DNA of 64,000 nt from an uncultured Kiritimatiellota bacterium (GCA_944389945.1 CALXOF010000001.1:3016-67015), one strand, 5' to 3'. Positions 21,796-51,308 are shown, counted from the first letter of the stretch. Numbers and translations: made by a program. Notes: generated from the sequence alone by a model not told the origin.

Positions 21796-21862
21796 CAGAG
21801 AGGGGGTGAGGACAACAAAAAAGGGAGGCTGAGGGCCTCCCTTTGGGTGAGTTGGCGCGGGG

Positions 21863-22000
21863 TTATTCCGCGGGGGCGAAGTCGGACTTGCCGACGCCGC
21901 AGGTGGGGCAGACCCAGTCATCGGGGAGCTGCTCGAAGGGGATGTTGTCGTTCTCGGCGGGGTCGTAGACGTAGCCGCAGACTTGGCAAACGTATTTCAT
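21863..22000 (-). CDS. Rubredoxin
   Basis: 45 aa '[45 protein letters not shown]' with two CxxCG motifs. Not present in the ORF track because it is under 60 aa. Confidence 0.85.
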
Positions 22001-22371
22001 GATGGGTTCCTTTCGGGTTGTGACTGGGAGAATGATAGCATAATTCAGGGCCCTTTGTCCTGCCCTGAGTTTTACCGCGAAGACGATTTGCGTGGAAACC
22101 CTGCGGGCTCCATCGCTCCCGTTGGTCGCGCCGCCCTTGGGATTTCCACGCTATCGCGCCCTTGAAGGGCGATCAAAAGGGGAATTGGGAAGTTTAGAGG
22201 CTTGGAGGCTTAGAAGTTTGGTTTTGTTGGTGGGGCTCCGCCCCACACCCTGACTTCTTATCTCAAGGCGCGAAACGGAGGGCGGCGGTCGCGGTCAGCG
22301 GCGAAGCCGCAGAGCGACCGATGGAACCCGAAGCGGTTCGCGCCCACCCTCGCGTCTTTGCGGTTAAAACT

Positions 22372-23442
22372 TTACAGCCTGTCGCCGGAGAGAGGGTCGA
22401 AGAGGCAGGCGTGGGTGTAGTCGGGCAGGAGGAAGCGGCGGTCGCCGTGGCGGAGGGGGGCTTCGGCGGGGATGCGGGCAATGACGGGGGGGCAGCCGGC
22501 GGGGGTGAGGTGGGCGTAGGCCTCGGCACCCATGCGCTCAACGAGGTCGACGGTCGCGGGGAGGGCGCCCGGGGCGGGGGCGTCTTGGAGGGTGAGGGCC
22601 TCGGGGCGGATGCCGAAGAGGACGTCGCGCGGGGCGTCGGGCAGGGGCCAGCCGGGGGGCGGGAGGAGGTCGCCGGCGGGGGTGCGGAGGCGGCCGACTT
22701 CGGCGCGGGCGGGGAGGATGTTCATCGGCGGGGTGCCGATGAAGCCGGCGGAGAAGCGGTTGCGGGGGTGGTTGTAGAGGGTGATGGGGTCGTCGATCTG
22801 GCGGATGCGGCCGGCCTCCATGACGACGATGCGGTCGCCGAGGGTCATGGCCTCGGTTTGGTCGTGGGTGACGTAGAGGATGGTGGCGCCGAGGCGGAGG
22901 TGGATGCGGTGGATCTCTTGGCGCATCTCCACGCGCATCTTGGCGTCGAGGTTGGAGAGGGGTTCGTCGAAGAGGAAGACTTTGGGCTGACGGACGATGG
23001 CGCGGCCGAGGGCGACGCGTTGGCGTTGGCCGCCGGAGAGCTGTTTGGGCAGACGGTCGAGGAGCGCGGTCAGGCCGAGGGTTTCGGCGGCGGCGGCGAT
23101 GCGCGTGGCGATCTCGGCCTTGGGGGTGTGGCGGAGGCGCAGGCCAAAGGCCATGTTCTCGCGGACGGTCATGTGGGGGTAGAGCGCGTAGTTCTGAAAG
23201 ACCATCGCGATGTCGCGGTCTTTGGGAGGGAGGTCGTTGACGATGCGCCCATCGATGGCGACGGTGCCGGCGGTGATGGTCTCCAGTCCCGCGACCATCC
23301 GCAACGTGGTGCTCTTGCCGCAGCCCGAGGGCCCCACGAGCACCAGAAATTCCCCGTCACGCACGGCGAGGTCAAAGTCCTCCACGGCCACGGCCCCATT
23401 GGGGTAGACCTTGCGCAGATGTTGGAGTGTGACTGCCGACAT
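22372..23442 (-). CDS. ABC transporter ATP-binding protein, MalK/UgpC-type (sugar import)
   Basis: Walker A 'GPSGCGKST', signature 'LSGGQRQRVALGRA', Walker B 'FLFDEPLSNLD', and a C-terminal MalK-like regulatory domain. Confidence 0.9.
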   Translation of the reverse strand: MSAVTLQHLRKVYPNGAVAVEDFDLAVRDGEFLVLVGPSGCGKSTTLRMVAGLETITAGTVAIDGRIVNDLPPKDRDIAMVFQNYALYPHMTVRENMAFGLRLRHTPKAEIATRIAAAAETLGLTALLDRLPKQLSGGQRQRVALGRAIVRQPKVFLFDEPLSNLDAKMRVEMRQEIHRIHLRLGATILYVTHDQTEAMTLGDRIVVMEAGRIRQIDDPITLYNHPRNRFSAGFIGTPPMNILPARAEVGRLRTPAGDLLPPPGWPLPDAPRDVLFGIRPEALTLQDAPAPGALPATVDLVERMGAEAYAHLTPAGCPPVIARIPAEAPLRHGDRRFLLPDYTHACLFDPLSGDRL

Positions 23443-23699
23443 AACCGTGGGAGCGGGGGTGTTGAGTGGGGAGAACGGAAAACGGAGAACGGAGAACGGA
23501 GAACAGAGAACGGAGCGTGCAGGCGCGAAGCGCCAAACCTTCCACGGCTACAGAACGCTCCTGCGGGGCGACGGTCAGGCCGTGTGCATTACTGTTTGCA
23601 GCCTTTGCTTTGCCATGCTGACCGAGGAATAATTTGGCGCCCGCTTGCCGGACGCATCTGTTCTCCGTTCTCTGTTCTCTGGGGCGGCAACGCCGCCCC

Positions 23700-24290
23700 T
23701 TACGAACCGGGATGGACGAAGGGTTCGCCGGCCTTGCAGAGGGGGCACTCGGCGGGTTCCCAGGTTACGGGCTCGATGTGCAGGAGCGCGAAGGTGGGAT
23801 AGGGGAACTTGGCCTTGCCGCCGGAACGGTCGACTAGCACGAGGACGGCGGCGACTTCGGCGCCGGCGGCCTTGACGATGTCGATGGTCTCCTGGACGCG
23901 GCCGCCGCGGGTGATGACGTCTTCGGCGACGACGTAGCGCTGGCCGGGGAGGAGCTTGAAGCGGCGCATGGTGAGCGCGCCCTCGGCGTTCTTCTCGGCG
24001 AAGACGCACTGCGTGCCGAGGGCCTTGGCGACCTCGTGGCCGACCAGGATGCCGCCCAGCGCGGGGGAGATGACGCCGTCAACGGGGCCGATGTCGGCCT
24101 CGGCCTTCATGCGGCGCACGAGCTCGGAGCAGAGCGTCTGGGCGTGGTGCGGCCAACGCAGGACCTCGGCGCACTGGAAGTAACGGTTGGAGTGGAGTTT
24201 GGAGCGGAGCTCGAAGTGGCCCTCCAGCAGGGCCTTCGTCTCCTTGAAGATTGCGAGCACTTCGTCGTCGGTCATGGGAATCCCTTTCAT
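23700..24290 (-). CDS. pyrE: Orotate phosphoribosyltransferase (short type)
   Basis: PRTase motif 'VVAEDVITRGGRVQETIDIV'. About 190 aa. The true start may be Met6, at 24275. Confidence 0.7.
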   Translation of the reverse strand: MKGIPMTDDEVLAIFKETKALLEGHFELRSKLHSNRYFQCAEVLRWPHHAQTLCSELVRRMKAEADIGPVDGVISPALGGILVGHEVAKALGTQCVFAEKNAEGALTMRRFKLLPGQRYVVAEDVITRGGRVQETIDIVKAAGAEVAAVLVLVDRSGGKAKFPYPTFALLHIEPVTWEPAECPLCKAGEPFVHPGS

Positions 24291-24648
24291 TGACTGGGCC
24301 TAGTATACCATATTTGGGGCGGCGAGGCCGCCCCGGAGAACGGAAAACGGAACGCGCGGCAAGCGCGCGACGGACGAGGGTGCTGTGCAAGCGGCGTTAG
24401 CCGCCGCCCTAGTCGTCCTATTGGTCCTATACGTCCTACCACATCGCCAGAGACTGCGAGTAGGGGAACCGCAGATTTCGCAGATTAGAGCAGATTTTTG
24501 GGTCGGCTACCGCCGACAGGACTGCCAGAATGGGGAAACGCAATCTTTGCGGTCTCGGTCTCATCGCCGCCAAGGGCGGCGGGCCGGGCCTCAACCTCTG
24601 GGGCTCCTCCAAGCTTCCAAGCCTCTAAACTTCCAAACTTCCACTCTC

Positions 24649-24824
24649 ATTGAAAACTTTTGCCCTTTTTACCGCTACTTTTCAATGAAAGGGTCCTTTT
24701 GGGCAGGTAAGAACCTTGTTTCACCCTCTCCAAGCCCCTTAAAACGAGCCTTCCCCCACTAAAGTGGGGGAAGGCTCGCTCTTTCATTGAAAACTTTTGC
24801 CCTTTTTACCGCTACTTTTCAATG
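24649..24824. repeat. Low-GC pair of 40-bp direct repeats, each itself palindromic (cattgaaaa...ttttcaatg), flanking a perfect hairpin
   Basis: DR1 at 24649-24687 and DR2 at 24785-24824. Hairpin gagccttccccca-ctaaag-tgggggaaggctc at 24746-24777. Confidence 0.7.
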
Positions 24825-24890
24825 GAGGCGGGAAAAGGGCCTCTTTTTTTGGTACACTTCCTCTTGTCAGACCTAGCAGGGAGGATGTGT

Positions 24891-26183
24891 ATGGCCATCC
24901 AGCGCGACTTTTATCTTCGACAGCTCATTGACCGTCAATGGAATGGGCAAGTCAAAATCATCACCGGTATCCGGCGGTGCGGCAAATCGTTTCTGCTGAA
25001 TGTCCTCTTCCGGGATTATTTGGTCAAGAACGGTACGCCGGAGAATTGCATCCTCTCCATCGAGCTGGATCAACTCAAGAACCTGCGGTATCGCAATCCG
25101 CTGGAGTTGGCGGCCTATGCGCGGGGATGGGCGGAGGCGAACCCGGAGGCGCGCCATTTCCTCTTTGTGGATGAGATTCAGCTTTCCGAACGCGTGCCCA
25201 ATCCTGCGCTGCCCAGCGGAGCGTCCATCACCTTTTATGACGCGCTCAATGATCTGCGCTCGCTTCCCAACCTAGACGTGTACGTCACCGGCAGCAACTC
25301 CAAGTTGCTTTCCAACGACATCGCGACCGAGTTCCGTGGGCGCGGAGACCCCATTCGCCTGCATCCTCTTTCCTTCGCTGAATATTATGCGGCTATTGGC
25401 GGGGGAGATAAGCAAGTGGCCCTACACGATTACCTCACCTATGGCGGGATGCCTAAGCGGTTGGAGTTTAAGGACGACGAGGAGCGGGTGGCGTATCTCT
25501 CCAACCTCATTACCGAGATTTACCTGCGCGACATCGTGGAGCGCAACAGATTGGCGCACCCCGAGCTGCTCGAGCGTATCCTCCACCTGCTTTGCTCCAC
25601 CATCGGCTCCCTCACAAACCCCAAGCGCATCGCCGATACGCTCACTTCCGTCTCTGGCAAGGGGGGGCACCATTCGCCAACCACCGTCCAATCCTATCTC
25701 ACCGCGCTGGAGAACGCCTTTTGTTTCAGCAAGAGCCTGCGTTATGACATCAAAGGAAACACCTACCTCGCCTATCCGGCCAAATACTATTGCGAGGACC
25801 TCGGCCTGCGCAACGCAGCGCTAGGGTTCCGGCAACTCGAGGAACCCCACCTGATGGAGAACGCGGTCTACAACGAGCTTCGTCGGCAGGGATTCTCCGT
25901 GGATGTCGGCGTGGTGGAGGAGCGGCGTGACGGGAAGCGCGTCTCGCGGGAGATCGACTTCGTAGCCAATCTCGGCAACCGTCGGCTCTACGTCCAGTCC
26001 GCCTACGCCATGCCCACGGAGGAGAAGCGCTTTGCGGAGAACCGCCCCTTGGAGCTTGTCCGCGACGACTTCCCGAAGATTGTCGTCCGTAACGACTTTG
26101 TCGGTGTGCGGAACGACGAGCGTGGCATCCGCAATGTGGCTCTGACAGACTTCCTGCTTGACGCCGGGGCCTTCCTCGCGTAA
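24891..26183 (+). CDS. AAA+ ATPase, COG1373/DUF4143 family
   Basis: Start chosen at 'MAIQRDFYLRQ...'. Walker A 'GIRRCGKS', Walker B 'FLFVDEIQ'. GC is below the genome average. Confidence 0.75.
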   Translation: MAIQRDFYLRQLIDRQWNGQVKIITGIRRCGKSFLLNVLFRDYLVKNGTPENCILSIELDQLKNLRYRNPLELAAYARGWAEANPEARHFLFVDEIQLSERVPNPALPSGASITFYDALNDLRSLPNLDVYVTGSNSKLLSNDIATEFRGRGDPIRLHPLSFAEYYAAIGGGDKQVALHDYLTYGGMPKRLEFKDDEERVAYLSNLITEIYLRDIVERNRLAHPELLERILHLLCSTIGSLTNPKRIADTLTSVSGKGGHHSPTTVQSYLTALENAFCFSKSLRYDIKGNTYLAYPAKYYCEDLGLRNAALGFRQLEEPHLMENAVYNELRRQGFSVDVGVVEERRDGKRVSREIDFVANLGNRRLYVQSAYAMPTEEKRFAENRPLELVRDDFPKIVVRNDFVGVRNDERGIRNVALTDFLLDAGAFLA

Positions 26184-26204
26184 TCCCGCCGCAGCATGGC
26201 CCGC

Positions 26205-27221
26205 TCAGGGGCGTTGCGACACGAAGCGGAGGAGGGTGTCGGGGCCGAGGGGGAGGCGGTCGAGAGGGGTGAGGGTGAGGGCGCGGGAGAGGGGGCGGGG
26301 GGCGATGGCGAGGCCGCGGACGGCGGCGGGGTCGCCGAGGATCTTGGGGGCGTAAATCACGAGGAGTTCGTCGACGAGGCCGGCATCGAGGAGGGCGCCG
26401 GCGAGGGTGCCGCCGCCTTCGCAGAGGACGTCGTTGACGCCTTTGGCGCAGAGGGCGCGGAGCAGGGCGGCGAGGTCGTGGCCGGTGTAGCCTAGGTCGC
26501 GGGTGGCGAGGAGGGTGCGGTCATCGAGGTCGCGGGGCTCGATGGAGGTGTGGCGGTCGACGAGGACGCGCCATTTGCGGGGGGCATCGGGGAGGTGGGG
26601 CTGGAGGGAGGGGTGGTCGTCGCGGACGGTGCCGGCGCCGACCATGACGGCGTCGACGCGGGCGCGGAGGCGTTGCACCCAGTCGCGGGCCTCGGGGCCG
26701 GTGATCCAGCGGGCGGCGCGTGTGCCGTCGGCGATATAGCCGTCGAGGGTCAGGGCGAGTTTGAGGCGGAGGTAGGGCAGGCCGGTGACGATGGCCTTGG
26801 CGAAGGGGGCGATGAGGGCGCGGCAACGGTCGGCGATGGGGCCTTCGGCGACGTCCACGGCGATGCCGGCTTCGCGCAGGAGGTCGACGGCGCGGCCGGC
26901 GTGGCGTGGGTTGGGGTCGAGGCACCCGATGACGACGCGGCCGAGGCGTTTGGCGCGGATGAGGTCGCAGCAGGGTGGGGTGCGGCCGGTGGTGGAGCAG
27001 GGCTCGAGGGTGACGTAGAGGGTGGCGCCGGCGGGGTCTTCCGTGCAACTGTTGAGGCAGTTGACCTCGGCGTGGGGGCCGCCGGCGCGGAGGTGCGCGC
27101 CTTCGCCCAGGAGACGTCCATCGCGTACGCAGACGGCGCCGACGGCGGGGTTGGGCGCGGTGCGTCCGACCTGCGCATCGGCCAAATCGGCGGCGCGCGC
27201 CAACCAGTCCGCGTCAGTCAT
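26205..27221 (-). CDS. ribD: Bifunctional riboflavin biosynthesis protein RibD (deaminase/reductase)
   Basis: CMP/dCMP deaminase zinc motifs 'HAEVNCL' and 'PCSTTGRTPPCCD'. C-terminal reductase domain. Confidence 0.9.
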   Translation of the reverse strand: MTDADWLARAADLADAQVGRTAPNPAVGAVCVRDGRLLGEGAHLRAGGPHAEVNCLNSCTEDPAGATLYVTLEPCSTTGRTPPCCDLIRAKRLGRVVIGCLDPNPRHAGRAVDLLREAGIAVDVAEGPIADRCRALIAPFAKAIVTGLPYLRLKLALTLDGYIADGTRAARWITGPEARDWVQRLRARVDAVMVGAGTVRDDHPSLQPHLPDAPRKWRVLVDRHTSIEPRDLDDRTLLATRDLGYTGHDLAALLRALCAKGVNDVLCEGGGTLAGALLDAGLVDELLVIYAPKILGDPAAVRGLAIAPRPLSRALTLTPLDRLPLGPDTLLRFVSQRP

Positions 27222-27375
27222 ACTGATCGATGAGCGAGGAGGGGAGGGCCCCGGTGGCCTCGGAGCGGGAGGGTTGGTTCCAGGGGATGTCCGAACGCCG
27301 CGCGGCGATGTCTTGGTTCACGCAACCGCAAACCGCCAACGCCGCGAGTCCGAGCAAAAGAAGTGTCGCTTTCAT
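27214..27375 (-). CDS. Small lipoprotein (53 aa), overlaps ribD start
   Basis: 'MKATLLLLGLAALAVCGCVNQ...' lipobox. Its stop overlaps the ribD ATG (ATGACTGA). Not in the ORF track. Confidence 0.35.
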   Translation of the reverse strand: MKATLLLLGLAALAVCGCVNQDIAARRSDIPWNQPSRSEATGALPSSLIDQYD

Positions 27376-27436
27376 GGCCTTATTATAGCATAGTGGGGCG
27401 CGTCAGCGCCTACTCACGGGGCGCGTCAGCGCCTAC

Positions 27437-28318
27437 TCACGGGGCGAGCCAGACGCGGCGGGCTTTGGCGTCGATGATGAGGTCGTTCATCTTGAGGAGG
27501 CTGTCAGCGCCGAGGATGGGTTCTTCGCCGGGGCGGAGGAGGGGTTCGAGGGTGAGGGTGTGGGTGCCGAGGCGGAGGGTGTCTTTTGCGCCGCGCTGGA
27601 GGGAGACGTTGGCGGCTTCGTTGACGCCGGTGGTGGTGAGGGCGGCTTCGCCTTCGGCGGCGGGCCAGCGCTCGCTGTCCATGAAGGTGAGGGAGGCGCC
27701 GGAGTCGAGGAGGACGGGGAAGGTGGTGGACTGGGCGTCGCCCGCGCGGCTGGCGACGAGGTGGAGGGAGTTGTCGCCGAGGGTCTGGAGCACGGGGAGC
27801 TCGGTGGCGCCGGTGAGGTCGGGCACGGAGGAATACCAGGTGACGGCGCGGTCGCGCAGGGAGAGGCGGAAGGGCGCGTAGGCGAGGGCGTTCATGCCCA
27901 GGATGCCGTCGATGCGGGTGCCGGCGGACTGGGCGAGGTGGCCGAGGGGAAGCGCCATGCCGACAAAACGCTTGAGCTCGGTCTCGCCGAGCTTGAGGGA
28001 GTGGATGGGGAAGGCGAGGGGGGCGGTCTCGACGTTGGTGTCGCCGCCGAGGGCGACGGGCTGGGTGGGGAGGTCCGGGAAGGTCTTGGCGAGGAAGTCG
28101 CGGTCCAGCGTGGTGTGGCTGGCGCCGGTGTCGAGGAGGAGGACGCAGGGCTTGCCGTTGAGGGTGGCCTGGACGGTCTGCAGGTTGTTGCCCGGCAGGA
28201 CGGTGAAGGTGAGGCGGTTGATGGGGACGCCGGCGACGGTGGGGGTGAAGAGCTCCTCCTGGGCGGGGAGGGCGGCGGCGAGGGCGAAGGCGGCGGCGAA
28301 GAGGAGGGTCAGTCGCAT
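27437..28318 (-). CDS. Secreted retropepsin-like aspartyl protease (two DTG/DSG lobes)
   Basis: Signal peptide. 'LLLDTGASHTTL' and 'VLLDSGASLTFM' active-site motifs. Confidence 0.7.
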   Translation of the reverse strand: MRLTLLFAAAFALAAALPAQEELFTPTVAGVPINRLTFTVLPGNNLQTVQATLNGKPCVLLLDTGASHTTLDRDFLAKTFPDLPTQPVALGGDTNVETAPLAFPIHSLKLGETELKRFVGMALPLGHLAQSAGTRIDGILGMNALAYAPFRLSLRDRAVTWYSSVPDLTGATELPVLQTLGDNSLHLVASRAGDAQSTTFPVLLDSGASLTFMDSERWPAAEGEAALTTTGVNEAANVSLQRGAKDTLRLGTHTLTLEPLLRPGEEPILGADSLLKMNDLIIDAKARRVWLAP

Positions 28319-28319
28319 G

Positions 28320-28904
28320 TCAGTTCCCTTTCAGATGGAAGAGGGTGAGGAAGAGGATGCGGAAGTCGAAGGCGGTGGAGCGCCTTGCGACGTATTCCAA
28401 ATCATAGCGGATTTTCTCGGCGCGGTCAATGGCGTTTCGGCCATGGATCTGGGCCCAGCCGGTGATGCCGGGGCGGACGTCGTGGCGGTGGTGCTCGGCG
28501 GGGGTGTACTCGGCGAGGTATTGCATGAGGAGGGGCCGCGGGCCGACCAGGGCCATCTCGCCGCGCAGGACGTTGATCAGCTCGGGCAGTTCATCGAGGC
28601 TCGTGGCGCGGAGGATGCGGCCCACGCGGGTGACGCGCTCGGCGTCCGTGCCCGGCCCGGGGCGCATCGTGCGGAACTTCAGGATGGTGAAGGGCCGGCC
28701 GTGGAGGCCCGGGCGCACCTGCCGAAAGAGCAAGGGCCGCCCCCCCGGCAGCAACGCCAGGGCAACGGCCCCCATCAGGCACCCCCACAGGGGCGCGGTC
28801 AGCAGGACAATCAAGAGCTCCAACGCGCGCGGCATGGCCAGGCGAAGCGGTCCAGAGACAAGCAAACAGAACCAAAGGGACGCGCGTCCCCTTGGTTCCG
28901 CCAA
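28320..28904 (-). CDS. Sugar-phosphate (polyprenyl-phosphate hexose-1-phosphate) transferase, Bac_transf family
   Basis: 'GRPFTILKFRTM...LDELPELINVLRGEMALVGPRP' hallmark of WbaP/WcaJ C-terminal domain. N-terminal TM helix. Confidence 0.85.
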   Translation of the reverse strand: MAEPRGRASLWFCLLVSGPLRLAMPRALELLIVLLTAPLWGCLMGAVALALLPGGRPLLFRQVRPGLHGRPFTILKFRTMRPGPGTDAERVTRVGRILRATSLDELPELINVLRGEMALVGPRPLLMQYLAEYTPAEHHRHDVRPGITGWAQIHGRNAIDRAEKIRYDLEYVARRSTAFDFRILFLTLFHLKGN

Positions 28905-28922
28905 CAGTCCGCCGGGCGGCGC

Positions 28923-29276
28923 TTAGAGGGCGCGCAGGCGGGCAGCCTTGCCCGTGCGGGAGCGGAGGTAGTAGAGCTTGGCGCGGCGGACCTTCGCGTG
29001 GCCGGTCACCTCGATCTTTTCGATGGAGGGGGAGGCGAAGGGGAAGACCTTTTCGACGCCGACGCCGAAGGAGATGCGGCGCACGGTGAAGGTTTCGGTG
29101 ATGCCGCGGCCGTCGCGGGCGATGACGTCGCCGGCGAAGACCTGGACGCGCTCCTTGTCGCCTTCCTTAATGCGCACGGAGACGCGCACGATGTCGCCCA
29201 CCTGGAGCTCGGGGCACTTCTTCGGGTTCTTTTCCGCCGTGAGGGCGTTCACTTTTTCCAAGGCTTTCGCAATCAT
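28923..29276 (-). CDS. rplS: 50S ribosomal protein L19
   Basis: '...[54 protein letters not shown]'. Confidence 0.95.
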
Positions 29277-29287
29277 TGCCGTAGTCC

Positions 29288-29971
29288 TTATCGTTGCTTC
29301 AAATCTGGTCGATGCCGGGCCGTCCGGTCAAGCATCTGGTTTTTGCGCCAGCGGGCCGCTTGTGCGTGGTCGCCGCGCAGGAGGGCCGGGGGGACGGCCT
29401 GCCCGCGCCAGACGGGCGGGCGGGTGTACTGGGCCTGTTCCAGGAGTCCGTCTTCCTCGAAGGACTCATGCTCGGTGGCTTCCTCGCCGCCGCCGAGCAC
29501 CCCGGGCAGGAGCCGCACCACCGCGTCGGTCACGACGGCGGCGGGCAGGGCGCCGTTGGTCAGCACATAGTCGCCGATGCTGAGCTGCTCGTCGGCCAAA
29601 ATCTCGAGCACGCGCTCGTCAATCCCTTCGTAATGTCCGCAAAGGAAGACGAGGTGGCTCTCTTTGGCCAGGCGCCGGGCGGTCTCTTGCCGGAAGGGGC
29701 GGCCCTGGGGCGACATCGCGATGACGCGTGTGCCGGGGCGGCGGAGGCTTTCGACGGCCTCAAAGATCGGCTCGGGCTTCATCAGCATGCCCGCGCCCCC
29801 GCCATAGGGCTTGTCGTCCAGCGTGCCGCGGGCATCGTGCGCGAAGTCGCGCAGATCGATGGCCCGGAGCTCTGCGGCGCCCATGGCCGCGGCCCGACGC
29901 AGGATGCTCTGCCCGAAGAAGCCTTCCAGCATCCCCGGGAAGATGGTCACCACGTCGATGCGCAGCGGCAC
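29288..29971 (-). CDS. trmD: tRNA (guanine37-N1)-methyltransferase
   Basis: '[11 protein letters not shown]...[13 protein letters not shown]...[12 protein letters not shown]'. Confidence 0.95.
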
Positions 29972-29989
29972 CGTGGGCCTCCCGGCGGC

Positions 29990-30253
29990 TTAGGCCTCGA
30001 CGGGAGCGGCCGCGGCGGCCTTCTTCGCCTGCTTGACGAGGGAGGCGACGGTCTCCGAGACCTGGGCGCCCTGGCTCGTCCAATAGGCGATGCGATCGAG
30101 GTTCAGGCCGAACTTGTCCGCCGTCTTGCGGGGGTCGTACCAACCCAGGATCTCCAGGAACTTGCCGTCACGGGGGCTACGCGAATCGCAGGCCACCACG
30201 CGGAACGTGGCCACGCGGTTGCACCCGGTCTTACGCAATCTGATCTTGACCAT
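29990..30253 (-). CDS. rpsP: 30S ribosomal protein S16
   Basis: 'MVKIRLRKTGCNRVATFRVVACDSRSPRDGKFLEILGWYDP'. Confidence 0.95.
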   Translation of the reverse strand: MVKIRLRKTGCNRVATFRVVACDSRSPRDGKFLEILGWYDPRKTADKFGLNLDRIAYWTSQGAQVSETVASLVKQAKKAAAAAPVEA

Positions 30254-30480
30254 TCTTCAGTCTCCAAGCCTCACCGCGCGTCGCTACCCCGCGGATGGGC
30301 GCTGTTGTGTTGCAATCCAATCATTCGGATGAATGAGTGATAAAGTATGCCAAATTCGCCGCCCTTCGCGCAAGCAAAAAGTGATGCGTGCCCCAAAAAG
30401 TTGTGCGGCCGCCCCGGCATGGGGGCGCTGGGGGGAGTGCCGCGGGCCCGCGCGGGGCGGGCCGTGCGGCGTGCGGGGGC

Positions 30481-31236
30481 TTACTCTTCCTCGGCTTCGA
30501 GGGCCGCCTCGACCTCGTCGGAGAAGTCGGCGGTGTGATAGACGTTCTGGACGTCCTCATTGTCCTCGAGGGCGGCGATGAAGCGGTTGAGGGCCTTGGC
30601 CTGCGCCACGTCGGTGACGGGGGTGGTGGCCATGGGGATGAGCTTCACCTCGGCCTCGGAGGTCTCGATGCCGGCCTTGTTGAGCGCGTCGCAGACGGCC
30701 GCGAAGGCGTTGGGGGCGGTGAGGATCTCGAAGCCTTCGTCGTCGGCGTTCACGTCGTCGGCGCCGGCGTCGAGGGCCAACATCATCACGTCGTCCTCGT
30801 TCAGGTCGCCTTTGGGCAGGAGGATCTGGCCCTTGCGCTCGAAGTTACGCGTCACGGAGCCGGACTGGCCGAGCTCGGAGTTGTTCTTCTTGAAGATGTT
30901 GCGGATTTCGGCCGCGGCGCGGTTCTTGTTGTCGGTGAGGACCTGGACCACCAGGCCCACGGTGCCGACGTAACCTTCGTAGGTGATCTCCTCGAGGGCC
31001 TCGGCCTGGAGCTCGCCCGTGCCCTTCTTGATGGCGCGGTCGATGTTGTCCTTAGGCATGTTGATGCCCTTGGCCTTCGCGATGAGGTTGCGCAGGGAGG
31101 GGTTGGTGTTCGGGTCGCCGCCGCTTTTGGCCACCAGCATGATTTCCTTGGCCAGACGGCTGAACATCTTGCCGCGCTTGGCGTCAGCCGCGCCCTTGGC
31201 GTGCTTGATGGTGGCCCATTTACTGTGTCCGCTCAT
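30481..31236 (-). CDS. yebC: YebC/PmpR-family transcriptional regulatory protein
   Basis: Start at 'MSGHSKWATIKHAKGAADAKRGKMFSRLAKEI'. The track ORF extends spuriously upstream. Confidence 0.9.
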   Translation of the reverse strand: MSGHSKWATIKHAKGAADAKRGKMFSRLAKEIMLVAKSGGDPNTNPSLRNLIAKAKGINMPKDNIDRAIKKGTGELQAEALEEITYEGYVGTVGLVVQVLTDNKNRAAAEIRNIFKKNNSELGQSGSVTRNFERKGQILLPKGDLNEDDVMMLALDAGADDVNADDEGFEILTAPNAFAAVCDALNKAGIETSEAEVKLIPMATTPVTDVAQAKALNRFIAALEDNEDVQNVYHTADFSDEVEAALEAEEE

Positions 31237-31294
31237 GATCTCTTCCTTTCTGAAGGGTATGAAGTCGTTGCTCGTCGTTAGTCTGTCAAAAAGT

Positions 31295-32209
31295 CTACCG
31301 CACCTCACCGTAGCCGGCGGCCATGTCGTCGCCCAGCATCCGTTCGGCGGTCTCGTCCTCGCACGGCTGCACCCAGCCCTGCTCGAAACCCAAATCCTCC
31401 ACCAGCCCCGCCAGCGGCTCAAAGGCCTCCGGCGACACCCGGCGGTTCCACCCCGGCAAATCCTTGGCCTTGCCCACGGGGTTGTACTGCGCCATCAGGC
31501 TCACCGCCACCCCGGCGCCCAACGCGTTGCGCAGCCACGTCAGGCTCTCGGCCGCCTCATCCTCGCGCCCCGGCAACACGAGGATGCGCACGATCAGGCC
31601 GCGCCGCGCGATGCCTTCGTCGTCCAGCTCCAACGGCCCCAGGCGGTCCCAGAACCAACGGATGGCCTGCCGCGCCGCGTCCACATAGTCCGCCGCGCCG
31701 CTTCCCTCCGCCGCCGTCGCGGACTTCGCGTAGCGCAGATCCGCCAACGCCACATCCGCCAGCTGCGGAAAGGTCGCCAACGTCTCCGTCCGCTCATAGC
31801 TCGACGTGTTGTAGACGAAAGGCAAACGGATGCCCTCGGCCAAGAGCGGCGCCGCCGCCTCCGCGATCTGCGGCAACCACGGCGTGGGCGACACCAGGTT
31901 CCAGTTGTGGCACCCCTGCTCCGCCAACGCGCGCATCCGCGCCGTCAGCTCCGCGATCGGGATGTCCTCGCCCAGTCCGCCGCTGCTCCACTTCGCGTTC
32001 TGGCAATAGACGCACCGCATCGTGCAATGCGAAAAGAAGAGCGTCCCGCTCCCCCGCGTCCCGGAAATCGGTGGTTCCTCCCCAAAATGCGGGCCCCAGC
32101 GGAAGAGCCGCGGCAACGCGCCGCTCCCGCAATACCCCACCTGCCCGTGCGCGCGATCGACGCCGCACCGGCGGGGGCAGAGCTCACAAGATGCCAAAGA
32201 GAAATCCAT
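31295..32209 (-). CDS. Radical-SAM protein, PflX-like (homolog of pyruvate formate-lyase activating enzymes)
   Basis: 'CELCPRRC' and CX3CX2C 'CTMRCVYCQN'. Confidence 0.7.
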   Translation of the reverse strand: MDFSLASCELCPRRCGVDRAHGQVGYCGSGALPRLFRWGPHFGEEPPISGTRGSGTLFFSHCTMRCVYCQNAKWSSGGLGEDIPIAELTARMRALAEQGCHNWNLVSPTPWLPQIAEAAAPLLAEGIRLPFVYNTSSYERTETLATFPQLADVALADLRYAKSATAAEGSGAADYVDAARQAIRWFWDRLGPLELDDEGIARRGLIVRILVLPGREDEAAESLTWLRNALGAGVAVSLMAQYNPVGKAKDLPGWNRRVSPEAFEPLAGLVEDLGFEQGWVQPCEDETAERMLGDDMAAGYGEVR

Positions 32210-32769
32210 AAGCACAATAGTATAGCACATCTCCCTCCGCTTTGCTTGCGCCCGATTTTCAAGAGGAAGTTTGGAGGCTTGGAAGTTTGGAGGCTTGGAG
32301 GAGCCACAGAGGTTGAGTCCCGGGCTGCCGCCCTTGGCGGCGATGAGAGCGGACGTTGCATGGCAAGCGCAGGACTGCCAGAATAGAGAAACCGCCGATT
32401 AGATTGGAAGTTTGGAAGCTTGGAGGTTTGGAAGTTTGGCTGGGCACACCAATTGTCTTGCTGAAGACTGCCAGAATGGGAAAACCGCCGATTACGCAGA
32501 TTAAAGCAGATTAGGGGCCGGCTACCGCCGGCAGGACTGCCAGAATAGGAAACCGCAGATTTCACAGATTTTGGGCAGATTAAGGGCGTGCTGGCGCACG
32601 CAGGACGCGCAATTGGAAGTTTAGAAGTTTGGAGGCTTGGAGGCTTGGCCTTTTTGCGGCTTACGCCGCCCTGTACAGCGCCTCGTCCATCGCCCGCTTG
32701 CGGGCGGTCCTGAATCTCCTGCATCTCCTGAATCTCCTGTTGGGCCATCTGAGGAGTGCGTCCCAAAGA

Positions 32770-32797
32770 AAAAGCCCCGCGGGGCGGGGCTTTTTGG
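32770..32797 (-). terminator. Terminator after PEP-CTERM gene (gccccgcggggcggggc + T-run)
   Basis: Identical hairpins also follow the PEP-CTERM genes ending at 33907 and 34814. Confidence 0.65.
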
Positions 32798-32812
32798 GGA
32801 TTGGGCGGGGGC

Positions 32813-33544
32813 TTAGGCCACGCGGCGGCGGAGGGCCACGCCGGCCACGCCCAGGGCGAGCAACGCCAGCGCCGTCGGCTCGGGGACGGAGGGATCTGGG
32901 TCGGAAGCTTCAGAGGCCGCAATCACTTGGTCGTAGGTCATCCCGGCCACGTAGTCGATGTCCATCGTGTAGGTATCCGCATTATTGTCCCACAGGTTCA
33001 TCCGCACATCGGTGCCGGAATCGCTCGTGCCCTGCTGCCCCCAGACGATGTGGGTCAGCGACTGGGTGGTGGTGTACGTGCCGTACAGGGTGCCGTCGAG
33101 GTAGAAGCTCAGCGTGTTGTTACCGTTCCAAGAGAGGACAAACTCATGGGTCGAGTTCGAGGTGAGCGTGACTTGTTCGCCAATCACCGACGGCGCGTCG
33201 CTCGCGGCCCCAAAGCCAATCGTGCCGCTGCTTTTGTCCGCGCAGTCGGCGTTGAACCGAATCGCCTGGCTGTTACCCTGGAAGGCGGCACCAATGATCG
33301 ACGGGTATTTCTGCCCACCGTTCGTGTAGGCGTTGATTGTTCCGGCGCTGAGGACGGCGGAGAGGGTCCATGAGCCGGAGCCAAGGTTGACCTGGTTCGA
33401 GCCAGTTCCGACGGTCATGGAACCGGAACTGGTCTTTGTGCCGAGGTCAACGTGGCCGGTGATCTTGTCCCAGTTGATGTTTGCCGCTTGGGTGGCGCCG
33501 AAGGCGAGTGCGGCGAGAGCGAGGGTGAGGAGTTTGCGTGTCAT
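32813..33544 (-). CDS. PEP-CTERM sorting-domain secreted protein (LamG-like)
   Basis: Signal peptide 'MTRKLLTLALAALAFGATQA'. C-terminal 'VPEPTALALLALGVAGVALRRRVA'. G9/C9 tract in the promoter at 33625-33633. Confidence 0.85.
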   Translation of the reverse strand: MTRKLLTLALAALAFGATQAANINWDKITGHVDLGTKTSSGSMTVGTGSNQVNLGSGSWTLSAVLSAGTINAYTNGGQKYPSIIGAAFQGNSQAIRFNADCADKSSGTIGFGAASDAPSVIGEQVTLTSNSTHEFVLSWNGNNTLSFYLDGTLYGTYTTTQSLTHIVWGQQGTSDSGTDVRMNLWDNNADTYTMDIDYVAGMTYDQVIAASEASDPDPSVPEPTALALLALGVAGVALRRRVA

Positions 33545-33865
33545 CTATGTCCCAACTTTCCGGTGTGTACACCTATCTTACAGGAAGGAATCCTGAAGAC
33601 TGTTTGCATATTAGCATAACTTTAGGGGGGGGGCAAGTGTTATTTAGAGGAAGCTTGGAAGTTTGGAGGCTTGGAAGTTTGGTTCTCGGGGAGGGGCGTT
33701 GCCCCACACCCTGCTTTTCTTCTTTAGAAAAGGTTGCAAGGCGCGAAACGGAGGGCGGCGGGCGCGGTCAGCGGCGAAGCCGCAGGGCGCCCGATGGAGC
33801 CCGAAGCGGTTCGCGCCCACAGTTGCGTCTTTGCGGTTCTCATTAATGGTGAGTGGGCAAAGAAA

Positions 33866-33893
33866 AAGCCCCGCGGGAGCGGGGCTTTTTGGG
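33866..33893 (-). terminator. Terminator after PEP-CTERM gene
   Basis: aaaaagccccgcgggagcggggcttttt. Confidence 0.65.
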
Positions 33894-33906
33894 GATTGGC
33901 GGGGGC

Positions 33907-34602
33907 TTAGGCCACGCGGCGGCGGAGGGCCACGCCGGCCACGCCAAGGGCGAGCAACGCCAAGGCCGTCGGCTCGGGGACGGAAGGATCCGGGTCGGGT
34001 TCCGGCAGGACAGCGGTCATCTGGGCGACCATGCGATCAATCTCCTCTTGGGTGAGGATGCCTTCATAGGCCGCCGTCTCATTGATGGTCCAGGCATCGT
34101 TCGCGAAGGTGGAGACAATGATATTTTCGGACGTGTTCGTATCCAAGACGGAGAAGAGCTGCACACCATTCGCGTAGCCGGTGATGGTGGCTTGATTGTT
34201 CGCGTTGCGCTCAATCGTGATGGTGAGCAGGTATTTCGTACCGACCGAAAGGGTTGGGGTATTGCTTGTGGTTCCCCAGCCAGTCTCAGAACCACCCTTC
34301 TTTTCCACGCCGATATGGCCATTGAGGGCATTCCCGGAGCCATACATATAGGCATAGGCGTGTCCGGCATCCCAGAGGCCGAGATCTGCGATGGCGGCTT
34401 GTTCTGTGCTGGCAGCCGTCGCATTCGCGGTCACCACCATGGCATAGGAGAGCGTTTTGGTGGAGGTAGAACCTTCCGTGGCGAAGTATTTATCGGTGTA
34501 GATGCTGTTCTCGGCTCCGGTTTGCCACTGCATGGTGACAGCCTGGGCGGAGAGGGCGAGGCCGGCGGCGGCACAAGCCAAGGCAAAACGTACGCATTTC
34601 AT
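33907..34602 (-). CDS. PEP-CTERM sorting-domain secreted protein
   Basis: Start at Met160 of track ORF 33907..35079 ('MKCVRFALACAAAGLALSAQA'). PEP-CTERM tail. G8 tract at 34680-34687 upstream. Confidence 0.8.
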   Translation of the reverse strand: MKCVRFALACAAAGLALSAQAVTMQWQTGAENSIYTDKYFATEGSTSTKTLSYAMVVTANATAASTEQAAIADLGLWDAGHAYAYMYGSGNALNGHIGVEKKGGSETGWGTTSNTPTLSVGTKYLLTITIERNANNQATITGYANGVQLFSVLDTNTSENIIVSTFANDAWTINETAAYEGILTQEEIDRMVAQMTAVLPEPDPDPSVPEPTALALLALGVAGVALRRRVA

Positions 34603-34768
34603 GGGTGTGTCCTTCGTCCCACGGGGGGCAGGACATCTGCCCGATTCACATGGAACGCCATTAAGATAGCACAAGTGACGGGGGGGGCAAGTGTTATTTA
34701 TTGTGTCAAGGCGCAACAAGGGAAGATTGGGGGCTTGGAAGGTTGGTTTCAAGCGGAGAATGGCAAAG

Positions 34769-34797
34769 AAAAAGCCCCGCGGGGGCGGGGCTTTTTG
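34769..34797 (-). terminator. Terminator after PEP-CTERM gene
   Basis: aaaaagccccgcgggggcggggcttttt. Confidence 0.65.
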
Positions 34798-34813
34798 GGG
34801 GATGGGCGGGGGC

Positions 34814-35491
34814 TTAGGCCACGCGGCGGCGGAGGGCCACGCCGGCCACGCCGAGGGCGAGCAACGCCAGGGCGGTCGGCTCAGGGATGTTGGTCGGCAT
34901 AATCGCGGATCCCGCGTCAACCAGCTTGGTGATCTCATCCGTGGTGAGGGTGCCATCATAAGTGGCCGCATCGTTGAAGGTCCACGCGGCATTGTTGGCG
35001 AAGGTCGCCGTGAGGGCGCCATCGGTGGGCTCAAGGATGGGATTGGCGTTGCCATTGAACGTAATTGGGGTCGTCCCATTGTTGATATAGAGCGTCACGT
35101 TCCAACGGTTGTTGGTGGAATCCCAGGTGCCATTGATCACCACGATGTGCGAGCCGGACGCAAGCGAACTATTGTTGTCCGTCCAAGTCGTAGCGTTAGA
35201 AGTCGTACTGTCGAAGTGGGCGCCAAAGCCATTCGCGGCGGAATAGGCCAAGAGACCGACAGCAGTGTCATCTCGCGTGGAGGTCCCGAAGGTCACCATG
35301 CTGGAGTTCTCGAGAGACTGGCCGGAGAAGGTCGTCGTGATCTTCACGGCGAGGGCGAAGTCGGCCTTCGCGTCACTCGAGCCGAAGATTTCCTGCGAGC
35401 CAGGGACGGTCGTGCTGCTCCAGGTCATATTCGCGGCGGAGGCAACCGTCGCCAGGCCAAGGGCCGCAATCAATCCAAGACAACGTTTCAT
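34814..35491 (-). CDS. PEP-CTERM sorting-domain secreted protein (LamG-like)
   Basis: Signal peptide 'MKRCLGLIAALGLATVASA'. PEP-CTERM tail. TTGACG-N18-TATTAT promoter with a G9 spacer tract (plus-strand C9 at 35573-35581). Confidence 0.85.
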   Translation of the reverse strand: MKRCLGLIAALGLATVASAANMTWSSTTVPGSQEIFGSSDAKADFALAVKITTTFSGQSLENSSMVTFGTSTRDDTAVGLLAYSAANGFGAHFDSTTSNATTWTDNNSSLASGSHIVVINGTWDSTNNRWNVTLYINNGTTPITFNGNANPILEPTDGALTATFANNAAWTFNDAATYDGTLTTDEITKLVDAGSAIMPTNIPEPTALALLALGVAGVALRRRVA

Positions 35492-35647
35492 GTCCTGCTA
35501 TCCTTTCTGTGTCGCGGCAACCACGTCGCGATTTATCAGCAATTCCATACTGATGAAGTAAATAATAGTCTACCCCCCCCCGTTTCGTCAAGTCTTTTTT
35601 TGCCTCTTGTGGGGCTTCGCGACTCCGGCCTCAAAAGGGGTCTTGGA

Positions 35648-35754
35648 GAAACCCTTAAGGGTCCGCGGTGAGACCCTATAGTGGTCGGAGGTCAACCACT
35701 ATAGTGGTCGGGGTCGAGACCCTATAGTGGTCCGACCCGAAACCCTTAAGGGTC
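35648..35754. repeat. MITE-like palindrome array (copy 3)
   Basis: aacccttaagggtc ... gaccctatagtggtc ... gaccactatagtggtc ... gaccctatagtggtc ... aacccttaagggtc. Confidence 0.8.
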
Positions 35755-36037
35755 GGCTGACGCCGCCCCTGGAGAACGGAAAACGGAGCGTGTAGGCGCG
35801 AAGCGCCAAACCTTCCACGGCCACGGAGAACAGAGAACGCCCCTTTGGGGCGACCGGCGAAGCCATTGTACAAAGCGGCGAAGCCGCCGTCCTATAGGTC
35901 CTATATGTCCTACCGCGATGCCTATTGGCACGTCGCAGACGTGCCGGGGGTGCAGGGAGAACTTCTCCCTGCCGGGGGGTGGGGCAGCGCCCCACATTCT
36001 TCCAATCTTCCATTCTTCCAATCAGCTAATCAGCCAA

Positions 36038-36997
36038 TCAGCTTCCCGCCCTTCCTGGGGCGGGAGGAGGTGGCGGGGTGCGGTCGAAGCGGCGGGTGGC
36101 GAGGGCGAGGTAGTGGCGCCAGGTGGGGCGAATGGTGACGCGGGGGAGGAGGTCGCGTTCCGTACGGCGGCGGTGGAAGGGCATGGGGTCGCGTCGGGGG
36201 AGGGGAAGGACGGCGTGGCGGAGGGCGCAGAGGGTGACGCAGAGGAGGAAGGGGAGTCCGCGGGTGAGCCAGAGGCGGGGTCCCCAGAGGCTGCAGGCGG
36301 TGGAGAGGAGGTTGGAGAGGTAGCGGCGCCAGACGCGGCGGCCGGGGAGTGCGCGGGCGGTGGTGCCTTCGGCGTGGGGGACGGGCGGGGGGGGGACGTA
36401 CCAGCATTCCCAGCCGGCGAGCCAGAGGCGGTGGCAGAGGTCGATGTCTTCGCCGTAGCAGAAGTAGGAGGGGCGGAAGAGTCCGCCGGCGGTCTCGATG
36501 GCGGCGCGGCGGAGGAGGAGGCAGGCGCCTTTGCCGGCGAGGACGGGGTGGGGGCGCTCGGCGTGTGGGCCGGGGGGGCGGCGGTAGCCTTGGTGCCAGA
36601 GGATGCCGAGCGGGGTGAGGTATTCGCCGCAGGTGTCGAGGGTGCCGTCGGGGAGGATGAGGGTGGGCTGGAGGGCGGCGAGGTGGGGGTAGGTGTCGAG
36701 GGCGGCTTGGAGGATGCGGATGGGTTCGGCGGCGGGGAGGGTGACGTCGGTGTTGAGGAGGAGGATGTGTTCGCCTTCGGCATGGGGGAGGGCGAGGTTG
36801 TTGCCGCCGGCAAAGCCGAGGTTGCGGGGGGCGCGGAGGAGGGTGACGCCGTCGGGGACGGTGAGGGGGGGCTCGCTGGCGTTGTCGACGACGAGGACTT
36901 GGGCTTCGGGCAGGTGGCGCAGGACGGCGGCCAAGCACCCTGAGAGGAGTTCGGGGTGATTCCAAGCGACAATGATGACGGTCAGCCGCGCATGCAT
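36038..36997 (-). CDS. Family-2 glycosyltransferase
   Basis: 'TVIIVAWN', 'VVDNAS', 'NLGFAGGNN', 'YGEDIDLCHRL'. Confidence 0.85.
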   Translation of the reverse strand: MHARLTVIIVAWNHPELLSGCLAAVLRHLPEAQVLVVDNASEPPLTVPDGVTLLRAPRNLGFAGGNNLALPHAEGEHILLLNTDVTLPAAEPIRILQAALDTYPHLAALQPTLILPDGTLDTCGEYLTPLGILWHQGYRRPPGPHAERPHPVLAGKGACLLLRRAAIETAGGLFRPSYFCYGEDIDLCHRLWLAGWECWYVPPPPVPHAEGTTARALPGRRVWRRYLSNLLSTACSLWGPRLWLTRGLPFLLCVTLCALRHAVLPLPRRDPMPFHRRRTERDLLPRVTIRPTWRHYLALATRRFDRTPPPPPAPGRAGS

Positions 36998-37939
36998 GGG
37001 GAGATTATAACAAAGGAGAACGGAAAACGGAGAACGGAGAACGGAACGCGCGGCAAGCGCGCGACGGGTGAGGGCGCTGGGAGGGCGTGGAAGGTTTGCC
37101 CTGCGGGGCTGACACGAAGGTGCACGAAGGACAAGGGGCGCTGACGCGCCCCGGAGAACGGAGCGTGCAGGCGCGAAGCGCCAAACCTTCCACGGCCACA
37201 GAGAACGGAGAACAGAACGCCCCTGCGGGGCGACGGGTGGAGTGGTGTGCCAGGGCTTCTCGGTCTCATCGCCGCCAAGGGCGGCGGTCCAGGCTTCAAC
37301 CTCTGTGGCTCCTCCAAGCCTCCAAGCTTCTAAACTTCCAAGCTTCCCATAGCCCCTGCACCCCCGGCACGTCTGCGACGTGCCAGAAGGACGACGAGGT
37401 AGGACATATAGGACATATAGGACCTATAGGACGGGGCTACGCCGGAGGACTCCCCAAAACCAAAGCGTGGCGTACGAAGCCCGCCATGCTCCTACAGGCC
37501 CCCGGGCCGGACGTGCGCCTTGCGCGCACGCACGGCCCGCCTTCAGCGTCGCCTTTCTTTGTGTCCTTTGTGAGACCTTGTGTCCTTTGTGATAAATCCA
37601 CACTAGCAGTCCTGCGTGCGCTAGCACGCCCTTAATCTGCAACAAATCTGTGAAATCTGCGGTTCCCCTGCGTCGTGCTCTTAGCCGTGGAAGGTTTGGC
37701 GCTTCGCGCCTGCACGGTGTCTCTTTGTGGTCCTTCGTGTTCTTTGTGATAGCCGCGCAGCGTTCGGTCTCATCGCCGCCAGGGGCGGCGGCCCGGGCTT
37801 TCACCTCTGCGGCTCCTCCAAGCCTCTAAACTTCCAAACTTTCAAGCTTCTACGGGGGCGCTTTGCGCCCCCGTAAGCGGCGCGACGGCACAAAAAAAGG
37901 CCCCCGGATGGGGGGCCTTTTGTGCCGAGTCAGCGACGC
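36998..37939. repeat. Mosaic repeat block (heptad GAGAACG tracts, gcgcgcggcaagcgcgcg hairpin, ggtctcatcgccgccaagggcggcgg module, cacg..ctagcacgcccttaatctgc module)
   Basis: All modules recur elsewhere in the window in different orders (see findings). Confidence 0.7.
37893..37920 (-). terminator. Terminator after gap
   Basis: Minus strand: ggccccccatccgggggcc followed by T7. Confidence 0.7.
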
Positions 37940-39722
<1,783 letters not shown>

Positions 39723-51300: not shown

Positions 51301-51308
51301 ACCATAAC

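Follow-up and report, generated by a model that had tools for sequence, protein, structure and literature searches.

Evidence for a recombination-shuffled array of lectin-like PEP-CTERM cassettes, with candidate switching, in an uncultured Kiritimatiellota bacterium

A 64,000-nt stretch of DNA from an uncultured Kiritimatiellota bacterium (GCA_944389945.1 CALXOF010000001.1:3016-67015; hereafter the window, to which all coordinates refer) carries four PEP-CTERM genes, three of which (g1, g2 and g3) stand side by side, flanked by a GT2 glycosyltransferase gene on one side and a radical-SAM gene on the other, while the fourth (g4) lies on the opposite strand. The best explanation of our results, to which we assign a probability of roughly three in four, is that the slot between the two flanking genes holds an array of cassettes in which old gene bodies are shuffled by recombination through 3′ and 5′ modules, with candidate switching of the cassettes. 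That this is a real instance of a known evolutionary mechanism, occurring in a new protein family and lineage, is well supported; phase variation is a candidate addition, suggested by promoter tracts that have the anatomy of repeat-mediated switching.

The original prediction, made from the window alone, had reported three tandem genes at 32813, 33907 and 34814 and a plus-strand copy of their common end, and all four open reading frames (ORFs) are real at those coordinates. In each, the extreme C terminus (the last 22-24 residues) matches the PEP-CTERM hidden Markov models, PF07589 with 29.1-29.2 bits (cut-off 20.7) and TIGR02595 with 20.5-23.3 (cut-off 16). The tail has the layout (V/I)PEP-TALALLALGVAGVAL-RRR-VA*, comprising a Pro-Glu-Pro motif, a hydrophobic helix and a basic cluster, and is modelled as a helix. 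The last 75 nt of all four genes encode 24 amino acids (aa), (V/I)PEPTALALLALGVAGVALRRRVA*, with three nucleotide differences between g1 and g2, five between g1 and g3, five between g2 and g3, and 3-5 between g4 and the others (93-96% identity); there are 2-3 differences in the last 60 nt and 0-1 in the last 39. A 51-nt tail core has matches with three or fewer mismatches at just four sites in the window, the ends of g1-g4, where shuffled sequence is expected to give 0. The near-identity claimed for the tails is therefore borne out, although the distance of 1-3 nt first given for them was too small; the plus-strand copy, placed near 21283-21358, is the tail of g4 at 21284-21358. Beyond the stop codon, g1-g3 share about 50 nt of 3′ untranslated region (UTR), GCCCCCGCC(C)A(A)TCCCC(C)AAAAAGCCCCGC-loop-GCGGGGCTTTTTCTTTG, with a terminator hairpin, A5-GCCCCGC-loop-GCGGGGC-T5, of -20 to -27 kcal/mol (z about -4.3 to -4.8). 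The claim of a common terminator holds for these three genes, whereas g4 carries a different one of its own. On the other side of the tail, DPDPS linker codons are common to g1 and g2.

Body identity among the window genes is 21-32.5%, within the bound of 35% first proposed. By inspection, a K/R-containing n-region opens the N-termini and leads into a hydrophobic core, after which come AQA, ASA or LQA and then (A/V)N-x-x-W, and the predicted local distance difference test score (pLDDT) is low at residues 1-19 of the g1 and g2 models. The description of the bodies as LamG-like was found to apply at the level of fold for g1 and g2, and at the level of Pfam only for g4, which scores 33.0 bits against Laminin_G_3 (cut-off 27.6); g1 falls below the cut-off at 20.0, and g2 and g3 have no match, while a precomputed PF13385 match is present on some g1 alleles. 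AlphaFold (AF2) models of g1 (pLDDT 79.5) and g2 (pLDDT 84.3) are jelly-roll β-sandwiches of the ConA/LamG type, and in Foldseek they match the NanA CBM40 domain (4c1w, E=2.8e-8), the botulinum neurotoxin (BoNT) Hc, a trans-sialidase lectin domain, the neurexin LNS domain and thrombospondin N-terminal domains with a probability of 1.0 and TM-scores of 0.3-0.46. The bodies of g3 and g2 are homologous in hhalign (E=2.5e-36).

The tail peptide is invariant across 10 species and the genome, at 64% G+C, has biased codon usage, so that purifying selection on the sorting peptide together with strong codon bias might be thought sufficient, with recombination unnecessary. We simulated two independent encodings of the tail peptide using the usage of 13,142 codons from the window's called genes. 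This null gives an expected identity of 80.6% (0.806), or 13.4 differences per 69 nt, compared with the 3-5 per 75 observed; the probability of five or fewer differences in 69 nt is 0.001, and that of three or fewer is below 5e-5. The codons that the window copies share are frequently non-preferred ones (CCG, ACG, GCG, TTG and GTG). A search with the fully degenerate back-translation of TALALLALGVAGVALRRR (18 aa) recovered 82 copies of this peptide in 10 species of metagenome-assembled genomes (MAGs) labelled Kiritimatiellaeota, Lentisphaeraceae or Ca. Spyradenecus, and within each set the copies encoding the identical peptide agree at only 78-87% of nucleotides (third positions 50-70%); the four window tails stand at 95.4% (third positions 88.9%). 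Because the null predicts 13.4 differences and the same peptide is encoded elsewhere at 78-87% identity, the nucleotide identity of the window tails goes beyond codon bias, which is excluded as the sole cause, a possibility that the original prediction had itself raised. The sharing of the non-coding 3′ UTR, and the mosaic sites and recombination junctions described below, likewise speak against selection and codon bias alone, and we consider that explanation extremely improbable.

The window is itself scaffold_22 of ENA assembly ERZ28613892. To compare strains, we gathered contigs from other samples that encode the flanking radical-SAM protein or alleles of g1-g3; all are short-read metagenome contigs, and with the window they give 16 arrays, about 11 of them distinct (handles beginning with L). 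The radical-SAM and downstream genes are 97-100% identical to those of the window and the GT2 gene 95-99%, and because the flanking genes are 95-100% identical the compared strains are, on this evidence, one species. The slot between the flanks holds two or three cassettes per strain, drawn from six body types: A (g3-like), B (g2-like), C (g1-like), D, E and F. Bodies are 17-33% identical between types and 59-100% within a type, and there are at least nine cassette arrangements within the species (Table 1); one contig, L093, has a truncated type A cassette only. The protein database holds allele series for each of the window's three types, running from 96 to 55% identity for g1, the most polymorphic cassette, from 100 down to 77% for g2, whose exact protein occurs on 21 contigs, and from 99 to 65% for g3, with obvious mosaics among them. 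Variation between strains extends to g4: the L079 allele (20749-20936; L022 was also compared) encodes 234 aa with the tail PEPTVLALL, and in CALXMT, the species representative, the syntenic position is occupied by another body type.

Bodies of the same type differ by up to 0.54 at synonymous sites, with a ratio of nonsynonymous to synonymous change (dN/dS) of 0.2-0.6, and a type B ortholog in another species is 84% identical in amino acids. For these reasons we regard the within-type alleles as old lineages and not recent bursts. Tails and signal peptides mostly differ by 0.05-0.3 at synonymous sites (type A tails by up to 0.43), uncoupled from the divergence of the bodies. A different history could be proposed, in which the genes are recent tandem duplicates whose bodies diverged quickly under positive selection and whose tails are too young to have changed; the tandem arrangement fits it, as does the remote homology of the bodies within one fold. 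It does not sit well with bodies that are only 17-33% identical between types and yet have a within-type dN/dS of just 0.2-0.6, nor with the type B ortholog, whose tail differs at 8/54 nt and whose existence implies that the types predate the species. Moreover, the tail of a given type can change from strain to strain, and an identical tail and UTR can be found on more than one type. Recent duplication is in our view very unlikely, and genome-wide positive selection on the bodies finds no support in a whole-body dN/dS of 0.2-0.6.

The strains show where cassettes have been exchanged. Between the window and L079, mismatches number 17-38 per 100 nt across a block running from 32897 to 33633 and about 0 outside it; the block begins at the start of the conserved g1 3′ module and its last mismatch lies in the poly-C/-35 element of the g1 promoter, and in the bodies of g2 and g3 there is no mismatch at all. 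Cassette 1 is type B in L094 and type A in L095 and cannot be aligned between them, whereas from within the cassette 1 tail there are 0 mismatches through 2.6 kb (D and F, to the radical-SAM gene), an identity interrupted solely by two short intergenic clusters. Cassette 3 is type C in L085 and type F in L094, and identity restarts in the cassette 3 tail. These are three independent cassette swaps with their 3′ junction in the tail, as would be expected if the tail serves as a recombination handle, which was one of the two roles first suggested for it.

The other suggested role, gene conversion or concerted evolution of the tail, also finds support. The g3 body of L079 is identical to that of the window, and nine differences are confined to 34799-34883 (85 nt of tail and 3′ UTR); four of the five coding changes make the tail identical to that of the adjacent g2 (ACGGCCTTG...CTT), and the sole other difference in the surrounding ~2.1 kb (33787-35900) is a poly-C indel at 34688. 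A derived haplotype, GGTATC (Val to Ile), is common to the tails of the type A and type B cassettes of L083; it is absent from other type B cassettes, the other carrier of ATC being one type A cassette, in L091. Among pairs of informative sites in the 72-nt tail, 30/91 fail the four-gamete test, with a minimum number of recombination events (Rmin) of 4; together with the junctions in the tail, this excludes conservation unaccompanied by a recombination signal. Tails differ on average by 4.95 per 72 nt for the same type in different strains, 5.43 for different types in the same strain and 5.91 for different types in different strains: linkage between tail haplotype and body type is almost absent. 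The g2 tail is 2-3/54 nt from those of its own non-orthologous neighbours and 8/54 from its ortholog in another species, such that paralogous type B tails are closer than orthologous ones between species; other tail copies of CALXMT, which belongs to the same species as the window, differ from it at 4-10/54 nt. Because swap junctions fall in the tail and L079 has a conversion tract there, the evidence supports the tail as a site of gene conversion and crossover.

Direct constraint on the tail nucleotides offers another way to keep them alike: an mRNA or DNA element spanning tail and terminator could act in stability, in translation pausing for membrane insertion, or as a regulator or small RNA (sRNA) site. 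The last 39 nt are invariant in g1-g3 and nearly so species-wide, and the tail abuts a strong terminator. Other species, however, encode the same peptide with different codons throughout, an Rfam search (E up to 0.1) across positions 20000-37500 gave no match in the UTRs or tail, which rules out a known RNA element there, and such constraint would leave the cassette junctions and the donor-matched conversion tract unexplained. We therefore judge it an unlikely substitute for recombination, with which it could nevertheless coexist.

At the opposite end of the cassettes, types B, C, D, E and F have a common promoter-like module, AAATAACAC-TTG-C(8-12)-N11-TAnnnT, while that of type A reads TTGACG-AAAC-G(n)-TAGAC-TATTAT. 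Types C and D have near-identical 5′ UTRs and signal peptides (MTRKLLTL...), and types B and E have a common signal peptide (MKCxRF...). This conserved 5′ module bounds the cassettes opposite the tail, as a second recombination handle. Five promoter spacers in the window contain homopolymers of at least 8 nt; four precede PEP-CTERM genes and one precedes an unrelated ORF. Across strains, tract lengths are G6, 9, 10, 15 and 19 in type A, C8, 9 and 12 in type B, and C8-10 in types C, D and F. The g2 promoter tract is C8 in the window and C9 in L079, the module being otherwise identical, and L096 and L097 have 3 substitutions in 5.7 kb but differ in three promoter tracts and one UTR tract. In the 10 species, 26/61 genes with the same tail are preceded, within 260 nt, by a G/C run of 7-12 nt; almost all of these runs occupy the corresponding promoter-like position, and orthologs differ in run length. 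Because tract lengths vary between near-identical strains, this polymorphism suggests phase variation. A sixth window homopolymer of at least 8 nt, the C9 run at 36387-36395, lies within the GT2 coding sequence and encodes Pro-Pro-Pro; other strains have interrupted, in-frame versions of constant length, and a phase-variable GT2 was dropped as a candidate. In the 5′ UTRs, a (CA)n run of types C and D (GTGCACACACACCGG; window 33560-33575) varies by one or two units between strains, and a C5/C6 run of type F is also variable.

Several observations weigh against a shuffled, switching array and call for caution. The homopolymer spacer is not exclusive to the PEP-CTERM family, because a G9 site also precedes an unrelated gene at 12291-13175, a 294-aa ORF with no Pfam match and no PEP-CTERM tail; the site (12213-12275) reads TTGACT-C-G9 (12240-12248)-TAAGC-TATACT, the same design as the PEP-CTERM promoters, and the tract could partly be an ordinary promoter feature of the lineage. 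A permutation test for an excess of within-genome tail similarity gave p=0.008 with the first eight strains and p=0.11 after strains were added and near-duplicates removed; the excess is modest, and because of this rise we do not claim that intragenomic homogenisation dominates. The shares of within-genome and between-strain exchange cannot be apportioned, and exchange seems to occur largely between strains as well as within genomes. Lastly, repeats of 125-230 nt in short-read contigs can create chimeric joins between co-occurring strains, two scaffolds (L084 and L085) have N gaps within the array, and long G runs are error-prone in Illumina assemblies.

One may accordingly ask if the shuffling is largely an artefact of assemblers that jump between coexisting strains at the repeated 5′ and 3′ modules, which are comparable in size to a read; those N gaps, and contigs that frequently end in or near the array (L071, L084 and L091), fit this reading. 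A pure artefact is argued against because the same arrangements recur in independent samples: 11 contigs are window-like, A-D-F is found three times and D-C three times. The exact g2 protein on its 21 contigs, the allele series that exist for each type at the protein level whatever their context, and a conversion tract that sits inside a single gene are also difficult to attribute to misassembly, and we consider this account improbable.

Other routes to variable surface genes were considered and set aside. Silent donor cassettes of the pilE/pilS or vlsE type, which the original prediction had proposed to look for, are not present in the 64 kb as promoterless or truncated copies: the 51-nt tail core matches only four full genes, tblastn with bodies A-F finds just g1-g3 in the window, and every window tail copy ends a full gene with its own promoter. 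A diversity-generating retroelement (DGR) is rejected, as no reverse transcriptase domain occurs in the gene calls (window positions 1 to ~57,600) and variation covers whole bodies, including synonymous sites; an invertase mechanism is likewise rejected, with no recombinase or invertase in the same gene calls. No exosortase is found among the gene calls covering positions 1 to ~57,600.

Under recombination-driven shuffling, each gene would form an expression cassette complete in itself, whose product would be a small, secreted, lectin-like protein that is presumably anchored at the surface. The promoter, sigma-70-like and with a G/C homopolymer in the spacer, would be followed by a 5′ UTR of ~60-80 nt; the coding sequence would then specify a Sec signal peptide, a body of ~180 aa with a ConA/LamG-like fold, a short linker and the PEP-CTERM sorting signal, and an intrinsic terminator would close the cassette. 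Selection would hold the tail peptide constant, presumably since one exosortase must recognise all of the products, whereas the near-identity of its nucleotides would come from homologous recombination, probably of the RecA type, at the two modules. The 3′ module (75-95 nt of coding sequence and ~50 nt of 3′ UTR and terminator) is a short repeat that every cassette contains, and the 5′ module (the -35 element and poly-C, in some types the whole 5′ UTR and signal peptide) is a second. Short gene-conversion tracts would move between neighbouring tails, and crossovers in the modules, between cassettes and between strains, would replace, reorder, add or delete the unrelated bodies in between, making the GT2 to radical-SAM slot a hypervariable array of six body types with many deeply diverged alleles. 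Slippage of the tracts probably shifts the -35/-10 spacing and would thereby switch each cassette independently, in which case the array would be a contingency locus for surface lectins, their products presumably under diversifying or frequency-dependent selection. More tentatively, and at slightly less than even odds, the sorting signal may double as a portable recombination site in this PVC (Planctomycetes-Verrucomicrobia-Chlamydiae) clade, whose nearest named relatives come from gut samples, and would with the promoter module form a plug-and-play, independently switched lectin repertoire.

Multigene surface families with conserved ends, gene conversion and repeat-mediated switching are textbook knowledge for a handful of pathogens. 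The Hop/Hom genes of Helicobacter pylori (babA/babB, homA/homB) are conserved at the 5′ and 3′ ends and variable in between, with interlocus gene conversion or concerted evolution, allele replacement between strains and repeat-driven phase variation. The present array resembles them in its ends, its middle, its conversion and its allele exchange; they differ in being β-barrel outer-membrane proteins at dispersed loci, whose conserved 3′ end is the barrel domain. Mycoplasma hyorhinis vlp, Neisseria opa, opc and porA and Bordetella fim are surface-protein genes with promoter homopolymers near the -35/-10 elements (poly-A in vlp; poly-C or poly-G in opc, porA and fim), and our array resembles them in that every gene comes with a homopolymer-bearing promoter and that variable mature regions follow conserved signal peptides, which in our case are predicted ones. 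Those systems, unlike ours, belong to pathogens with experimentally shown switching and are not exosortase substrates; what is seen here is length polymorphism only. The tandem streptococcal emm/mrp/enn genes have a conserved signal peptide and LPXTG end, hypervariable bodies and recombinant chimeras. They too place variable bodies between an N-terminal signal and a C-terminal sorting signal, although theirs is a Gram-positive sortase system of coiled-coil proteins with no promoter repeat switch. In the literature searched, such families are so far undescribed for PEP-CTERM/exosortase substrates or for uncultured Lentisphaerota/Kiritimatiellota-like bacteria.

In their description of the PEP-CTERM/exosortase system, Haft et al. 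2006 (PMC1569441) observed at the protein level that PEP-CTERM regions are much more alike within than between species, and ascribed this to recent paralogous expansion of a modular domain. Our genes share with that system the PEP motif, transmembrane helix and Arg cluster, together with a putative N-terminal signal peptide, single-gene transcription units and many paralogs per genome. In contrast to that account, the bodies here are old, and the tails are homogenised and serve as crossover points at the nucleotide level; the promoters look sigma-70-like and have homopolymers, as opposed to the sigma-54 motifs of the proteobacterial ones. The data thus point to concerted evolution of old paralogs rather than recent expansion, and offer a mechanistic reading of the species clustering seen by Haft and colleagues: if it is true, PEP-CTERM tails look species-specific because concerted evolution is still going on, and not because the family expanded recently. 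Phase-variable PEP-CTERM proteins are not unprecedented, because in human gut commensals, genes with PEP-CTERM sorting domains are reported to be over-represented close to invertible promoters that are phase-variable (PMC11892184); the mechanism there is site-specific inversion, whereas here it would be homopolymer slippage and homologous cassette exchange. The literature searched holds no paper joining PEP-CTERM with gene conversion, the top-ranked works on concerted evolution, phase variation or homopolymers do not mention PEP-CTERM, and the part covered of the literature pairing PEP-CTERM with phase variation does not describe the present mechanism. If the plug-and-play repertoire is confirmed, no contingency-locus system will have been described earlier for exosortase substrates or for this poorly known lineage. 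The array also points to a set of lectin-like proteins on which host glycans, phage or immunity probably impose strong frequency-dependent selection, and it flags a region in which metagenome assembly and strain tracking will be unreliable.

Table 1. Features of the array and its surroundings in the window, and cassette arrangements by contig
Feature	Position	Strand	Description
radical-SAM gene	31295-32230		array flank
g1 3′ module	32764-32908	-	DPDPS linker, tail 32813-32887, 3′ UTR and terminator 32764-32812
g1, body type C	32813-33544	-	243-aa putatively secreted ConA/LamG-like PEP-CTERM protein; ORF, PF07589 29.1 bits, AF2 and Foldseek
Block replaced, window vs L079	32897-33633	-	g1 promoter spacer, 5′ UTR, signal peptide, body
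g1 promoter-like module	33608-33645	-	AAATAACAC-TTG-C9 (33625-33633)-N11-TAATAT; 5′ edge of exchanged block
g2 3′ module	33859-34002	-	linker, tail 33907-33981, 3′ UTR, terminator
g2, body type B	33907-34602	-	231-aa PEP-CTERM lectin-like protein; Pfam, AF2, Foldseek
g2 promoter-like module	34663-34699	-	AAATAACAC-TTG-C8 (34680-34687)-N11-TATCTT
g3 3′ module	34765-34888	-	tail 34814-34888, 3′ UTR, terminator; holds conversion tract 34799-34883
g3, body type A	34814-35491	-	225-aa PEP-CTERM protein, g2 homologue; ORF, Pfam
g3 promoter-like site	35562-35591	-	TTGACG, 18-nt spacer with G9 (35573-35581), TATTAT; scan match 10/12
GT2 glycosyltransferase gene	36038-36997	-	array flank
g4 promoter-like site	20635-20662	+	TTG-C8 (20638-20645)-N11-TAGCAT
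g4	20714-21358	+	214-aa LamG PEP-CTERM protein, opposite strand, 11.4 kb off; Laminin_G_3 match
g4 tail and unrelated own terminator	21284-21406	+	tail 21284-21358
Arrangement A-B-C			window, L079
Arrangement A-C-B			L083
Arrangement B-D-C			L085
Arrangement B-D-F			L094
Arrangement A-D-F			L095, L096, L097
Arrangement B-C			L090
Arrangement A-F			L091
Arrangement A-D			L092
Arrangement E-C			L082
Arrangement ?-D-C			L071, L084, L087; upstream end unread

Some further features of the region were noted. In L093, the array-side GT2 gene (1908-3138 of that contig) is split into ORFs of 167 and 240 aa, and aligned to another strain's GT2 gene it has 271 extra nt in at least two blocks. Intergenic DNA flagged by TRF (Tandem Repeats Finder) is a mosaic of varied short tandem repeats with units of 7-10 nt in 3-6 copies (CCAAACTT, CAGGAGATT, GGAGAAC, TAGGACATA, CACAAAGGA, TGGCTGAT and CTCTGTT), along with a 23-mer, GAGACCCTATAGTGGTC..., in 2-5 copies. 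Examples lie at 5914-6271, 20183-20368, 21436-21769, 23470-23681, 32265-32739, 35670-36043, 37015-37591, 39049-39701 and 50346-52598; most intergenic regions of the window are affected, and units found in one region turn up again in others and in related MAGs. Short tandem repeats flank the cassettes too, with indels between strains. Just before g4, a zeta-toxin/AAA_33 gene (19357-19989, minus strand) and a small upstream ORF (region 19357-20183) may form a toxin-antitoxin pair. At the start of the window (1-5809) is an Akkermansia-like type IV pilus cluster, with homologs of PilM, Amuc_1100 and Amuc_1102 and a 1083-aa secretin.

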